A stretch of DNA of 43,264 bases from an uncultured Eubacteriales bacterium (GTDB lineage Bacteria; Actinomycetota; Coriobacteriia; Anaerosomatales; CAVRZR01): the NCBI GenBank assembly GCA_964456615.1, contig CAYWCB010000001.1:1-43264 (forward strand), in the 5' to 3' direction. This document shows, in pieces, positions 27,781 through 31,913 of this stretch (position 1 is its first letter; the number at the start of each line of letters is the position of its first letter). The position numbers and the translations under genes are program-made. Under the pieces are notes generated by a model that saw nothing but the letters and a program-made list of their open reading frames with translations, did no database searches and had not been told where the DNA came from.

Positions 27781-28101
27781 CTAGTTCTGCCAGACCCCGT
27801 AGCCTTGCGCCGGAAGCTCCTCGGCTCGCGCCCGTTCAGAGGCGTCGCGCTCGGCGGCGCTGTTGACCTGAACTTGATAGCACTTGCGAGTCGCGACGTA
27901 CTTGCCGTAGCGCTTCACCCAGCGTGATGCCTTGTTGCCGTTCTCGTGCATTCCGAGACGAGTCTGGGGTTCGTAGATGCTCGAGCCGACGTAGTAGCAC
28001 GGCCTTCCGGGAACGTAGCCGGGATTGCGGTTCAGGAACTCGGTCTTCGCAAGGACTTTGTCGTCGAGCCGTATCGCGTAGATCCATACGACCTGTGACA
28101 C
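27781..28101 (-). CDS. small GIY-YIG-like nuclease domain protein (last gene of the four-gene operon)
   Basis: WIYAIRL ... CYYVGSS ... [20 protein letters not shown] follows the GIY / YxG / R..H..G spacing. The GTG at 28101 overlaps the helicase TAG (TAGTG). An alternative GTG start is at 28149. Confidence 0.45.
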
Positions 28102-29456
28102 TAGGCGCTGGCCTCCACTAGGCGCCCTTCCCGCTCCAGGAACCCCCACACCTCACGATGGGCATTCCAGCCGTCCCATTCAGCGTTCTCCGCGCCCAAT
28201 GGACGCGAGGCGCAATCATGGAGGTGGGCGTCGAGGCGCTGACCTATTCCGCCCCTACTCACGACAATGCACCCGACCTGGTGGCGGGACAACTGCACGC
28301 AGAAGCGGCCAGGTTCGAAACCAAATGCGTCGTACTTGGCCGCTCCGCTGAGCGGATGCTTCACGATTATGATCGGCCGCTCGAGACCCTGCCAGATCTC
28401 GGGGGTATCCACCATCACGCCGCCCTCGCCCACGCCCATTCCCAATTGAAGGAGACAGCGACGAGTCGCGGCACCGGATACAACGTGAGGATCCACGCAG
28501 CCGACGTGTTCGGCCGTCAGTGGACCAGCCACGCTCGTCTCCGCCTCCCGAGTAAGCAACCTTTCGGCGATTCTCGCGGTCAACTCAGATAGCTCGGGGT
28601 CCTCGTGCGAAAGCGAGGTCTCTCGCGGCGGCAGGATGAGACCCACGACGCTCGCGCCGCCTTCGATCTTGTCCAATGCGCAATCGATCGCGTCGCCGTT
28701 GCCAGACCGCTTCAGCTTCAGCATGCGCTCCTCGGCAGCAGCCGAGGTGAAAGGCAGCCGAGGGTAGAAGGCGGGTTGGATGAGGTCGGTGGTGTCTTGC
28801 GGCAGCCGACGTGTTGCGGGGAGCCGCATGAGGGGAAGCTCGGGATACGTCCGCAACAACTCCCGTGGGACTGCCCAATGCACCTTCGGCTCCGCGCCTT
28901 CGTACCAGACCGTGTCGGCTTGGACGAGAGGCGGCAACTGTCCTGGATCGCCTACCAGCAGTGACTGCTGCGCAACCGAGAACAGCGGGGCGAAATCGAG
29001 GAAGGGCAACTGATAGGCCTCGTCGCACACGAGCAGGTCGAAGAAGCCAGCGCCCCACTTCTCTGCCGAGAAGGTGGCCTTGGCGGCAACAGCTATTGTC
29101 ACGCCCGGACCCGGGAGCACGTCATCGGCGCGATTCGCGACGACGATGTTCCCCCTCGCTGCGATGTCCGATGGAACCTGACGCTCACTTCTCTGATGAA
29201 GCTGGATGTGCACTGAAGGGAAATCCCGTGCAAGCCGGCGACAAAGCGCATACGTCTGCTCCACGCGAGGCATGACGCAAAGCACGGACAGGCGGAGCTC
29301 CCCGGCGGCCAAAGCGAGGACTTCTTCGACCAGGCCGGTCTTGCCCGCCCCTGGCGGCGAGTCGACGACGACCAACGGCTCGCCCTTCGCAAGTGCCAGC
29401 TCAAGGATCGCATCCCTCGCCTGTCGCGCCTGCAGCTCGACATCCGCGCGTGGCAT
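28101..29456 (-). CDS. minimal SF1 helicase (Upf1/DNA2-like, AAA_11/AAA_12 type)
   Basis: Walker A DSPPGAGKTG, Walker B LLVCDEAYQL, motif III LLVGDPGQLPP, motif V TPEIWQGLERPIIIV and motif VI VQLSRHQVGCIVV. Confidence 0.8.
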   Translation of the reverse strand: MPRADVELQARQARDAILELALAKGEPLVVVDSPPGAGKTGLVEEVLALAAGELRLSVLCVMPRVEQTYALCRRLARDFPSVHIQLHQRSERQVPSDIAARGNIVVANRADDVLPGPGVTIAVAAKATFSAEKWGAGFFDLLVCDEAYQLPFLDFAPLFSVAQQSLLVGDPGQLPPLVQADTVWYEGAEPKVHWAVPRELLRTYPELPLMRLPATRRLPQDTTDLIQPAFYPRLPFTSAAAEERMLKLKRSGNGDAIDCALDKIEGGASVVGLILPPRETSLSHEDPELSELTARIAERLLTREAETSVAGPLTAEHVGCVDPHVVSGAATRRCLLQLGMGVGEGGVMVDTPEIWQGLERPIIIVKHPLSGAAKYDAFGFEPGRFCVQLSRHQVGCIVVSRGGIGQRLDAHLHDCASRPLGAENAEWDGWNAHREVWGFLEREGRLVEASA

Positions 29457-29459
29457 GGA

Positions 29460-30857
29460 CTACTGCCCTCTCAACCGGTCGAGGGCGGACGCGAGCTTGG
29501 TTGCATCGGTCGCGCGCCGGCGTCCCGAAGGCAGCTCTCCGCCAAACGCCAAAGGATGCCCATGGTCGCGCATCGTCTGGTAGATCCCTCGCTTCAGGTA
29601 ATGGCCCTCGAAGGGGGCGCAGTCGATGAAGTCGACCGTCTCCCCCACCACGGGAGCCTTCGCTCTGGTCACGCCCTTGACCACTTGCGCGAGAATCACG
29701 CTGGGCTTTCCGAGCTCGTACTCCAAGGCGTCGACTCGGATCCTGAGTCTACCGTCCAGCGAGCTCAGTGATGTGCCACGCCTAACCCTCAAGACCTGCT
29801 GCTCGGTTTCCAGGCGAACGTGGCAGGGGTGCTGTCCTGGCGCCGGCTGGTTCACTTCGAGCACACGACAGAGCACAGCACGCCCAGCGAGACGGGCTTC
29901 CTGTCTGATCAGGCGATCGAAGCGGATCTCGCGGTCGAGAAGCACCTCGGCAGCGTGCTGTTCGTCCAAGATCGACCTTGAAAGACCGTCTGCGCGAGAC
30001 GGGCGCCAGTACCTGCCCTCGGCAATCCTCCGAAACCGCCAGCTGTCGCTCTCGGGATCCCAGCCCTGCAGGTCGATCAGATTCAAGCCCCAATAGGCCT
30101 GTCTGCCGGATTCCAGGAGCTCCCACTCTTGAAGCGCCCCGTTGCGCAGGATCGTCTCGATCAGGGCGCGCGCCTTTGGGGCCTCCGGCCCCCCTTCGCT
30201 GACTCGACGCCGCAGATCCTCGACCTGATCGTCATCGTGTCGAATGAGGACGGCGTTTGCCGGTTGAATCGCTGCCTGGTCGGCTGCGAGGGAGGGATCG
30301 ACACCCTGCTGAGGGTCGATCCACTCCAGCAGTGCCCGCAGGTGATAGTCCTTCGCCGGAGACTGCCCTGTCGCAACATGCTTGCGGAGCAACTCGCCGG
30401 CTACCGCAACCACTTGCTGTCCCGGCCGGCGCGCCTCGGCCAGAAGGGCGGCACATTGCCCACCCATCACCCGGATTGGTTCGCTCGCCCGCCTGTTGGT
30501 CCGATAGCGGTACCCGAGCATCTCGATCACGCCAAGGGCGGCGCGATGGGGCAGCCAGATTCGGGGGATCGAACCGCGAGCAATTGCGTCCTTGAGGTAG
30601 GCGTCCAGCGCCTGCGCAAACGGAAGTAGTTCGTCGGCTTCCCGAGCCATCGGGTTCAAGCGAACGAGGACTTCAGGAGTATTCCCCGGAGTACCGAAGG
30701 CTACTGCCTGGACCTGCTCCTCGGCGACGACGCGAATCGGAGCGATGCCGAATACCGGCATCGGGTCCGGCGACAAGTAGAACGTTTCGCGAATGGGTAC
30801 GGCGCGACCGCGCTTGCGCGCGAGCACTCGCGCCACCAGATCGAAGTCACCAGCCAT
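29460..30857 (-). CDS. 465-aa protein of unknown function (second gene of the four-gene operon)
   Basis: Long ORF with normal amino-acid composition. It starts 6 nt after the upstream stop and ends 3 nt before the helicase start. I recognise no motif. Confidence 0.6.
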   Translation of the reverse strand: MAGDFDLVARVLARKRGRAVPIRETFYLSPDPMPVFGIAPIRVVAEEQVQAVAFGTPGNTPEVLVRLNPMAREADELLPFAQALDAYLKDAIARGSIPRIWLPHRAALGVIEMLGYRYRTNRRASEPIRVMGGQCAALLAEARRPGQQVVAVAGELLRKHVATGQSPAKDYHLRALLEWIDPQQGVDPSLAADQAAIQPANAVLIRHDDDQVEDLRRRVSEGGPEAPKARALIETILRNGALQEWELLESGRQAYWGLNLIDLQGWDPESDSWRFRRIAEGRYWRPSRADGLSRSILDEQHAAEVLLDREIRFDRLIRQEARLAGRAVLCRVLEVNQPAPGQHPCHVRLETEQQVLRVRRGTSLSSLDGRLRIRVDALEYELGKPSVILAQVVKGVTRAKAPVVGETVDFIDCAPFEGHYLKRGIYQTMRDHGHPLAFGGELPSGRRRATDATKLASALDRLRGQ

Positions 30858-30863
30858 CTGACG

Positions 30864-31913
30864 CTATGCTCCCACGTCCCGAAAGACACCCAGCAACTCT
30901 ACGAGGTGCGGAGCCACTTCCCGCTCGCGGGAGGTCCTCGGCGCCGCCCCCTGCATCAGCTCGAATACGCGCTCCAAGGGAGTCTCGGCACCAATCAGGT
31001 CTGCGGCTGAGTCTCCAAGCACTCGCGCGCTCGCGGCGTACTCGCGTGCGCACACGTCATGGAGCACACACGAGCGAACGCACTCATCCGTGAAGTGCCG
31101 CTTGAAGTCGTCGGCTACGGTCTCCAGCCCTTGCTCCCTAGGGATGCGCGCAAGGCGATCGCCCACCTCTCGCGCTGTCCGTAGGGCATGTTCAATCTCG
31201 TGGACTTCGGCGTCGACGTTCTCCTGCACCGGCTTCGCGGGTGAGAGGCCGTACGGACTGGCGAACACGAAGATCGCGCGGTTACGCACTCGCTCAGCGA
31301 TCCCGTAGCGCTCGGCGGCTTGCCGCAGACCGATTACCTGAGCACCCGCCTGTCGACGAGCACCGTCGGCATCGGCACGATCGACAACATTGTCGCGAAC
31401 GATGAAGGACTTCTCTTCGCCGGGCACGTAGATGCGCTCGCTGCGATCGAGAAGGAGGAAATCCGGCACCAGATAGTGCGTCCCGGTCTCCGTGACCTTG
31501 AGTGGCAGAACGGGCTGTATGAGGAGAGCTGGCACACTCATGTCGTTCTTCGAGAGGCGTTCGATGAACTCGAGCGTCCGGCGCATGCGCTCGAGACGCT
31601 TCTCTTTCGCGGTCCCCGGAATGGCCTCGTCGAAGTTGAGGACCGAAATCCCCTCGGGCTTGCGCGCGTGAAGGGGTGCGATGGCCTTTCGCAGCACCTC
31701 GGCGCCATTCTTGTGCAGATTCTGCTCGAACATAGTCCCGCGACGCCGAGCAGACTGACGCTCACCGTACTCGCCGGGGTACGGCTCGCCGGTGTAGCTC
31801 TCGTAGAAATCCTTCTCTTTGACGCCCCGCACCGCAAGCGCCGCTTGGAGCTCACATTCCGGATTCTTCGAAATCCGGATGAGGCCCCTCGAACCCCCAA
31901 GTGCCACGATCAC
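30864..31913 (-). CDS. Cas4/RecB-like PD-(D/E)xK nuclease with a four-Cys (Fe-S-like) pattern
   Basis: VPDFLLL (D), YVPGEEKSF (E-x-K) and RRQAGAQVIGL (Q motif). Cys at NPEC near the N-terminus and CVRSCVLHDVC near the C-terminus. GTG start preceded by GAGGTGA. Confidence 0.6.
   Translation of the reverse strand: MIVALGGSRGLIRISKNPECELQAALAVRGVKEKDFYESYTGEPYPGEYGERQSARRRGTMFEQNLHKNGAEVLRKAIAPLHARKPEGISVLNFDEAIPGTAKEKRLERMRRTLEFIERLSKNDMSVPALLIQPVLPLKVTETGTHYLVPDFLLLDRSERIYVPGEEKSFIVRDNVVDRADADGARRQAGAQVIGLRQAAERYGIAERVRNRAIFVFASPYGLSPAKPVQENVDAEVHEIEHALRTAREVGDRLARIPREQGLETVADDFKRHFTDECVRSCVLHDVCAREYAASARVLGDSAADLIGAETPLERVFELMQGAAPRTSREREVAPHLVELLGVFRDVGA

Follow-up and report, generated by a model that had tools for sequence, protein, structure and literature searches.

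A conserved three-gene operon encoding a putative helicase-nuclease machine in a bacterial defence island

The locus and its predicted proteins

The window studied here is a stretch of 43,264 nucleotides of contig CAYWCB010000001.1 (GenBank assembly GCA_964456615.1, from an uncultured Eubacteriales bacterium placed in the Anaerosomatales by GTDB), considered at its full length, in which four genes, called G1 to G4 in the direction of transcription, are packed on the minus strand next to a Type I restriction-modification (RM) system. The first three, G1, G2 and G3 (hereafter the trio), are the main subject of this work. G1 occupies positions 30864-31913, a 349-aa open reading frame (ORF) read from a GTG codon, with a likely start two codons later, at 31907, that gives the 347-aa protein found in the database. 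G2 (29460-30857) and G3 (28101-29456) are ORFs of 465 and 451 aa, and G4 (27781-28101) encodes 106 aa from a GTG lying in the TAGTG overlap with the G3 stop codon, its open frame extending to 28149. The gaps are of 6 nt between G1 and G2 and 3 nt between G2 and G3, the G3 stop and the G4 start overlap by 1 nt, and a minus-strand spacer of 101 bp (27680-27780) separates G4 from hsdM (26132-27679, same strand), which is followed by hsdS (24949-26142). A weak terminator-like hairpin (27781-27766) and a T-rich tail are found at this spacer, a simple consensus match without significance (1 found for 2.4 expected in shuffled sequences). The ORF coordinates thus bear out the four co-directional ORFs and all four spacings (6 nt, 3 nt, TAGTG, 101 bp) reported in a preliminary description made from the sequence without database searches. 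In the databases the proteins of the operon are named only "hypothetical protein". When the four proteins and their distant relatives were scanned with the hidden Markov models (HMM) of Pfam 2025, PADLOC 2023, NCBIfam June 2026 and PHROG, the helicase alone was recognised; G1, G2 and G0, a gene found beside the trio in other genomes, have no model in any of these libraries, up to NCBIfam June 2026.

A word-indexed search yielded 65 homologues of G1, 50 of which were aligned (residues are numbered on the 347-aa form). In this alignment P148-D149 and E164-x-K166 are invariant, and one N-terminal cysteine (C18) and three C-terminal cysteines (C276, C280 and C286) are invariant or at least 90% conserved, the C-terminal spacing being CX3CX5C instead of the usual CX2CX5C. 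G1 has no match in Pfam, PADLOC or NCBIfam; for Cas_Cas4 and PDDEXK_1 in particular, neither G1 nor a distant member gave a Pfam match at E ≤ 0.1, and sequence and profile searches of the PDB returned spurious coiled-coil or helical matches only. The AlphaFold2 model has a mean predicted local distance difference test score (pLDDT) of 92. Compared with the PDB by Foldseek, its best match is MGME1 (E 9e-4, the sole match at E ≤ 1e-3), and further top matches are Cas4 SSO0001, ACE1, Exo5, the AdnAB nuclease, lambda exonuclease and RecE; these top matches have probabilities of 0.85-1.0 and modest template-modelling (TM) scores of 0.2-0.4. The main neighbour not acting on DNA is the Rai1/Dxo1 group of RNA-decapping enzymes, with weak E-values, and Dna2 is not among the top 50 matches. 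Judged by its motifs, its cysteines and its modelled fold, G1 is a divergent PD-(D/E)xK nuclease of the Cas4/RecB/Exo5/MGME1 type, which probably carries a four-cysteine iron-sulphur (Fe-S) cluster and, from its intact motifs, is apparently catalytically competent. The invariant PD...ExK residues, the 1+3 cysteines and the fold neighbours are in agreement with the Cas4/AddB-like Fe-S nuclease proposed for this gene at the outset.

The third protein is recognised by Pfam as AAA_11 (31.3 bits for a cut-off of 27), with AAA_30 just below the same cut-off (26.4 bits) and AAA_12 far from it (13 bits); an unmarked AAA_12 match is also present in the orthologue of a distant metagenomic locus (L017). 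Among seven orthologues, the motifs GAGKT (G36-T40), DEAYQ (D145-Q149), GDPGQL (G169-L174), QG.ER (Q356/G357/R360) and SRH (S390-H392) are invariant. The profile built on these seven orthologues matches IGHMBP2 (6e-9) and DNA2 (1e-6) in the PDB, as well as SETX, Sen1 and Upf1, and the DNA2 match aligns G3 residues 8-181 with DNA2 624-798, which is the whole of the 1A domain. In PADLOC, the best match is a partial one to MkoC (E 6.7e-11) covering residues 134-179, i.e. the 45-46 residues of motifs II-III, and the PADLOC and NCBIfam matches to MkoC, MkoA, Hhe, ProA and PLuB cover little else. By its motifs G3 is therefore a minimal (451 aa) Upf1/Dna2-like SF1B helicase/ATPase core, the motor of which is apparently active; its size and the approximately 100 residues from Walker A to DEAYQ indicate that the accessory 1B barrel and 1C prong are likely absent. 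The invariant motifs, the PDB profile matches and the AAA_11 score above cut-off agree with the two-RecA-domain, Upf1/DNA2-like superfamily 1 (SF1) helicase recognised at first sight.

The middle protein resembles nothing in the libraries. The word-indexed search found 25 clusters of G2 homologues, and an exhaustive profile search extended the superfamily to 571 representative clusters at E ≤ 1e-3 (346 at E ≤ 1e-10), a second subfamily of about 480 aa being found among the 571. Across this superfamily D209 is invariant and E46, R72, Q147, H160, Q165, W179, D314 and R359 are conserved at 90% or more, these fixed residues composing no known motif. No match to G2 exists in Pfam, PADLOC, NCBIfam or PHROG, and distant members are likewise without an HMM family; sequence and profile searches of the PDB gave nothing below E 0.4 for G2, G4 or G0. 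The AlphaFold2 model (pLDDT 85, predicted TM score 0.81) starts with an alpha/beta domain, continues through a long helical stretch into a small beta-barrel towards the C-terminus (approximately residues 327-411) and ends in helices. Foldseek returned nothing at E ≤ 1e-3 in the PDB or BFVD; the best matches are the helicase cores of Sen1 and SETX (E 6e-3 to 5e-2, TM about 0.2), and other weak ones are generic barrels, such as EF-Tu domain II, the FAD barrels of flavoproteins and the N-terminal barrels of HerA and F1. The statement that G2 has no recognisable motif consequently holds, every library tried being blank and no Foldseek neighbour reaching E ≤ 1e-3. A pAgo/PIWI-like protein and a RecC-like inactivated helicase were also considered for G2 and set aside, no structural match supporting either.

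A natural fusion is seen in P0108, a metagenomic protein of 985 aa in which G2 and G3 are joined in frame through a short linker, with 42% identity to full-length G3 (E 8e-96). It is a possible Rosetta-stone hint of an interaction between the two proteins. Two other apparent fusions, P0101 (G2 to G3) and P0241 (G0 to G1), were rejected as frameshift artefacts with garbled linkers.

Conservation of the trio and its accessory genes

In every locus long enough to show synteny, the order G1-G2-G3 is identical; this concerns about 15 independent loci in Actinomycetota, Acidobacteriota and Chloroflexota, and the order is retained down to 17-30% identity. The hosts are a Coriobacteriaceae metagenome-assembled genome (MAG), Bryobacteraceae, Sulfotelmatobacter, Terriglobia, Acidimicrobiales, Solirubrobacterales, a Chloroflexota MAG and metagenome contigs, together with a distant branch formed by L017 (26-41% identity), plasmid p1 of Streptomyces sp. 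WAC00288 and Nonomuraea gerenzanensis. The distribution is patchy, being spread over Coriobacteriia, Acidimicrobiia, Thermoleophilia, Actinomycetes, Acidobacteriota and Chloroflexota. In many of these relatives the stop and start codons overlap within the trio. This strict synteny shows that the trio is inherited as a block, and the genes are probably co-translated. On one metagenome contig of 164 kb (L022), two paralogous trios lie in tandem (10001-13844 and 14728-18406), the second having 25-31% identity to the proteins of the window, and in one trio locus G3 is decayed. No match to G1 or G2 was found in IMG/VR or INPHARED, and none to the G1 and G2 of the window's clade in PLSDB. The co-occurrence in other genomes that the preliminary description had put forward as a check is accordingly found for G1-G2-G3, in the same strict order; it is not found for G4.

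In most of the distant loci, a conserved gene of approximately 270-307 aa, named G0, lies directly upstream of G1 (L005:8139-8945, L017:3323-4180, L022:9081-10004, L024:9162-9983 and L025:2318-3163). Its product has conserved RFGxLxxDE, PIKRLW and WPLERR blocks and an N-terminal region that is coiled-coil-like by eye, and it has no Pfam or PDB match. G0 is absent from the window, from its clade and from L001. The L025 locus is that of the Streptomyces plasmid (NZ_CP027023.1, approximately 176700-183800), where G0, G1, G2 and G3 correspond to WP_062760435, WP_062760434, WP_062760433 and WP_062760432 and where the operon is directly followed by a Wadjet JetA/B/C-like set (DUF3375, DUF4194 and an SbcC/MukB-like protein).

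G4 behaves differently from the trio, its translational coupling to G3 being confined to this genome. It has a single homologue, with 51-52% identity and long invariant blocks (two clusters in 5.8e9, G4 included), from which we conclude that it is a real gene. This homologue (L016:219-557) directly precedes a DUF262/GmrSD-like gene that carries a DGQQR motif (L016:578-1219), with no trio beside it; small proteins of this type may be accessories that roam from one defence island to another, and not partners of the helicase. By tblastn, G4 is absent from loci L001-L013, and at the later loci gene calling placed no small gene after G3, the loci that are 66-78% identical to the window being included. 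The four-gene unit of the preliminary description is in consequence reduced to three, since only G1-G2-G3 are conserved together and G4 occurs in no related locus. As to its nature, G4 has no Pfam, PHROG or PDB match even at E ≤ 10, and hhalign against approximate sequences of I-TevI and YhbQ gave E 0.12 and 0.21 (probability below 1%), with YVGS..R..H in register. In GIY-YIG nucleases the spacer from GIY to YIG is usually of 10-11 residues. By eye, G4 has GIY-, YIG-, R-, H-, E- and N-like residues with a spacer of about 27. The GIY-YIG identity first given to G4 is therefore an unverified by-eye impression without statistical support, and the "two different nuclease folds" then attributed to the operon, which depend on it, are not retained.

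The docking of the operon on a Type I RM system does not extend to the relatives either. No hsdM was found beside the trio in L001-L013, nor was one called at the later loci, and HsdR is close to it in 2 of about 10 other loci (L014 and L023), in a differing arrangement; the places of the neighbours are taken elsewhere by DISARM-like, GmrSD/HNH, Dcm/Vsr, XhoI-type, Wadjet or HsdR/Mrr genes. On the basis of these comparisons, neither G4 nor the Type I RM system belongs to the conserved unit, both being genome-specific neighbours. A role of the trio as a dedicated partner of methyltransferases was also examined and rejected, methyltransferases being present in about half of the loci only and of inconsistent types.

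Defence-island context

RM, defence or mobile-element genes are found within 10 kb of the trio in all nine independent annotated loci (9/9). These neighbours are GmrSD, HNH, an SLFN-type helicase and MazG (L002 and L015); a DISARM-like set of methyltransferase, helicase, MZB and phospholipase D (PLD) genes (L005); a UvrD-PDDEXK protein, an M78-UvrD protein, SNF2-NOV_C and STAND-like ATPases (L001); TOTE, HsdR and Mrr (L014); SNase, UvrD-PDDEXK and an N6/N4 methyltransferase (L017); Dcm with Vsr and SRA-HNH (L022); HsdR and DUF3644 (L023); an Eco57I-type methyltransferase, XhoI and insertion sequence (IS) elements (L024); and Wadjet (L025).

Its gene content marks the window, too, as a dense defence island. 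This and the 9/9 count are in agreement with the defence-island setting described initially. In the window, hsdR is flanked by a TOTE-type archaeo-eukaryotic primase-helicase (10429-12843) and an Mrr-like PDC-S02 restriction gene (15088-16110). In the Coriobacteriaceae MAG PWVH01 (L014), TOTE, HsdR and Mrr are present in another order and the trio comes directly after Mrr, not before hsdM; since both this order and the position of the trio differ, the arrangement of the island has changed from one relative to another.

The Type I RM operon of the window is interrupted (19820-24567), four minus-strand genes being found between hsdS and hsdR. Two PDC-S11-like proteins (minus strand), a radical SAM protein (22043-22861, minus) and a TcmP three-Cys-motif partner protein (22858-23772, minus; TIGR04474 at 1e-35, also PDC-M30A/M41A) are encoded there, and a divergent gene for a helix-turn-helix and M78 peptidase protein (19820-20905) matches PD-Lambda-2_B.

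Upstream of G1, three direct copies of 300 nt from the 3' part of a DUF429 gene, 81-84% identical, are located at 32023-32322, 33154-33453 and 35399-35698. One of the corresponding ORFs is full-length (35417-36802) and two are truncated (32041-32643 and 33172-33510), which suggests local duplication and decay. Between the DUF429 copies, on the plus strand (33619-35224), two overlapping genes encode a protein of 200 aa with a weak likeness to DUF6036 nucleotidyltransferases and a protein of 338 aa without family; they may form a small toxin-antitoxin or abortive-infection-like pair. Toxin-antitoxin pairs of the Gp49/HI1420 type and of the Phd/PIN type follow at 37016-38357, and beside them, at the island edge, a plus-strand ORF of 1020 aa (39703-42765) has no Pfam, PADLOC or NCBIfam match.

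Relation to known systems and proposed function

In tests of membership, the operon belonged to none of the named defence systems tried. G1, G2 and G4 have no PADLOC match, those of G3 are marginal or partial, and the distant members have none; PADLOC, Pfam and NCBIfam name none of the genes as part of a known system, in agreement with the preliminary description, which could not match the composition to named systems. No account of the operon was found in a text search of open-access papers. PDB entry 9KWF proved to be an unrelated helicase of an acidophile. Candidate operons with a helicase and a nuclease are common in defence islands, and by analogy the trio would work like known helicase-nuclease immunity (RecBCD/AddAB, Nhi, Hachiman, Gabija, DdmDE).

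In Dna2, the nuclease domain is followed by a beta-barrel/stalk and then by the helicase domains 1A and 2A. The predicted domain content of the trio is closest to that of Dna2 and of Bad, a bacterial Dna2-like helicase-nuclease of Geobacillus (PMC7430649): an Fe-S PD-(D/E)xK nuclease with 1+3 cysteines and an SF1B Upf1-like motor are common to them, and the genes G1-G2-G3 follow one another like the nuclease, barrel/stalk and helicase parts of these proteins. The trio differs from them by its three polypeptides, by the 465-aa G2 without detectable homology to Dna2, by the CX3CX5C cysteine spacing and by its occurrence in defence islands, the context of Dna2 and Bad being replication or repair. 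AddAB, AdnAB and RecBCD are likewise multisubunit enzymes with SF1 motors and RecB-family nucleases, with an Fe-S staple in AddB; unlike the trio, they have SF1A UvrD/Rep-type or RecD-type motors fused to the nuclease, are without a G2-like subunit and belong to the core genome. RecBCD has an established antiphage role. In Nhi, a nuclease is joined to an SF1 Upf1/Dna2-like helicase. Nhi and Hna share with the trio the association of nuclease and helicase activities, in their case in anti-phage defence, but they are single polypeptides without an analogue of G2 or G0, and the PADLOC models of Nhi and Hna gave no match to G1-G3 at E ≤ 0.1.

Mokosh also contains an Upf1-like helicase, its MkoC and MkoA being the best PADLOC matches of G3, whereas its effector is a PLD nuclease and its proteins exceed 1100 aa; no PLD protein exists in the trio. 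Hachiman, Gabija and DdmDE combine a helicase and a nuclease in ATP-driven surveillance of DNA coupled to degradation, with folds that differ from those of the trio (SF2 and DUF1837 for Hachiman, UvrD and OLD for Gabija, a helicase-nuclease and a prokaryotic Argonaute (pAgo) for DdmDE); the trio has in addition a protein of novel fold, and the sole PADLOC match to these systems is a marginal one of GajB to G3 (E 0.016). Finally, Cas4 and the Argonaute-associated Cas4-family enzyme ACE1 resemble G1 in fold and in the arrangement of the Fe-S cysteines, and ACE1 is evidence that nucleases of the Cas4 family serve immunity outside CRISPR as accessory processors of DNA (PMC12094033). With 347 aa, G1 exceeds them in size and has additional helical regions, and no CRISPR or pAgo genes are adjacent to it.

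Taken together, these data lead us to favour, on balance, the hypothesis that G1, G2 and G3 are the subunits of one ATP-dependent helicase-nuclease machine acting as an innate immune module against DNA; the narrower claim of a DNA helicase-nuclease complex is the more probable. In such a machine G2 would bridge the motor (G3) and the nuclease (G1) as a scaffold or adaptor, and it may supply in trans a stalk/beta-barrel element akin to the one that Dna2 has between its nuclease and helicase. We propose such a "split Dna2-like" helicase-nuclease because the gene order is colinear with Dna2/Bad, because G2 ends in helices and a beta-barrel and because its helicase-related structural matches are to the Upf1 family only; the "split Dna2" picture is put forward as a hypothesis since the Foldseek matches of G2 are weak and their aligned region is unreported. 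Foreign DNA would be entered by the complex at ends, flaps or replication intermediates, G3 would translocate in the 5' to 3' direction, threading the 5' single strand of the invading or replicating DNA, and G1 would cut the displaced or threaded strand. The candidates for recognition of the trigger and for discrimination between self and non-self are G0, where present, and the N-terminal domain of G2. A more specific proposal, which we regard as possible and rather less than probable, is that of an undescribed and widespread immune family in which a Dna2-like nuclease-helicase is split in three, joined by G0 in most lineages, the novel-fold G2 scaffold replacing the accessory domains of the helicase and coupling motor to nuclease. 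A new mode of recognition of foreign DNA would then reside in G2 and G0.

Several points weigh against the immune machine and its Dna2-like form. The stalk/barrel likeness of G2 is drawn from matches at E 6e-3 to 5e-2 and TM about 0.2, with the aligned region unreported; the P0108 fusion, represented by one cluster, might have arisen as an artefact of assembly or sequencing; the link with defence is a qualitative one, drawn from about 10 loci; and the text search was limited to open-access papers. Furthermore, helicase-nuclease machines of such a make-up (AddAB, AdnAB, Dna2, Bad) also serve repair, and Upf1-like helicases often act on RNA, therefore the substrate of the trio could be RNA.

Three other explanations were considered. 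In the first, which we consider unlikely, the trio would be a helicase-nuclease of the accessory genome, akin in function to AddAB, AdnAB, Dna2 or Bad, that processes or repairs DNA ends in recombination, repair or mobile-element replication, and not an immune system. An Fe-S RecB-type nuclease with an SF1B motor is the domain content of a repair enzyme, the structural neighbours of G1 include the AdnAB nuclease, Exo5, MGME1, RecE and lambda exonuclease, and G3 matches DNA2. Some loci also lie on or next to mobile elements, with a DUF3854/DUF3631 primase-like gene in L017, an NrS1-1 polymerase/AAA_25 gene in L023, IS elements in L024 and the Streptomyces plasmid. Against a repair function stand the patchy spread over several phyla with tandem paralogues and the immediate neighbours, which are consistently restriction or defence genes, no SOS or repair gene having been seen adjacent; in addition, no phage or IMG/VR copies were found.

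A surveillance directed at RNA appears still less probable. Here the helicase would translocate along transcripts of the phage or of the host and the PD-(D/E)xK protein would be an RNase, by analogy with Mokosh or with CoCoNuT, which is predicted to target RNA. The choice of MkoC and MkoA as best PADLOC matches of G3, the presence of the RNA helicases IGHMBP2, SETX, Sen1 and Upf1 among its PDB relatives and the weak structural matches of G2, led by Sen1 and SETX, would be consistent with it. However, the PADLOC matches are confined to the 45-residue region of motifs II-III, DNA2 matches the whole 1A domain of G3, and the neighbours of G1 are almost all Fe-S Cas4/RecB DNA nucleases, Rai1/Dxo1 being the main exception. 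The last explanation, in which G4 would be a GIY-YIG nuclease and the fourth member of a system coupled in function to the neighbouring Type I RM genes, is very improbable: the TAGTG overlap of G3 and G4, hsdM on the same strand 101 bp further on, the Type I R subunits near the trio in L014 and L023 and the YVGS..R..H..G of G4 in register with the YIG-R-H of the approximate GIY-YIG sequences (not significant) are in its favour, but G4 is missing even at loci of 66-78% identity, its one homologue has another context, no HMM supports GIY-YIG, no hsdM was found beside the trio in L001-L013 or in the genes called at the later loci, and in L014 the trio is on the opposite side of the RM genes.

The G1-G2-G3 family is noteworthy in being widespread and strictly syntenic and in comprising, with G0, two proteins without known relatives. 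The cultured hosts Streptomyces sp. WAC00288 and Nonomuraea gerenzanensis make the trio directly testable. If it is found to be protective against phages or plasmids, it would constitute a new multi-phylum family in helicase-nuclease innate immunity, and G2 and G0, having no known homologues, could hold a new principle of sensing or regulation. A natural "split Dna2", if the proposal is true, would moreover provide a model for the control of SF1B motors and Fe-S nucleases by accessory domains.

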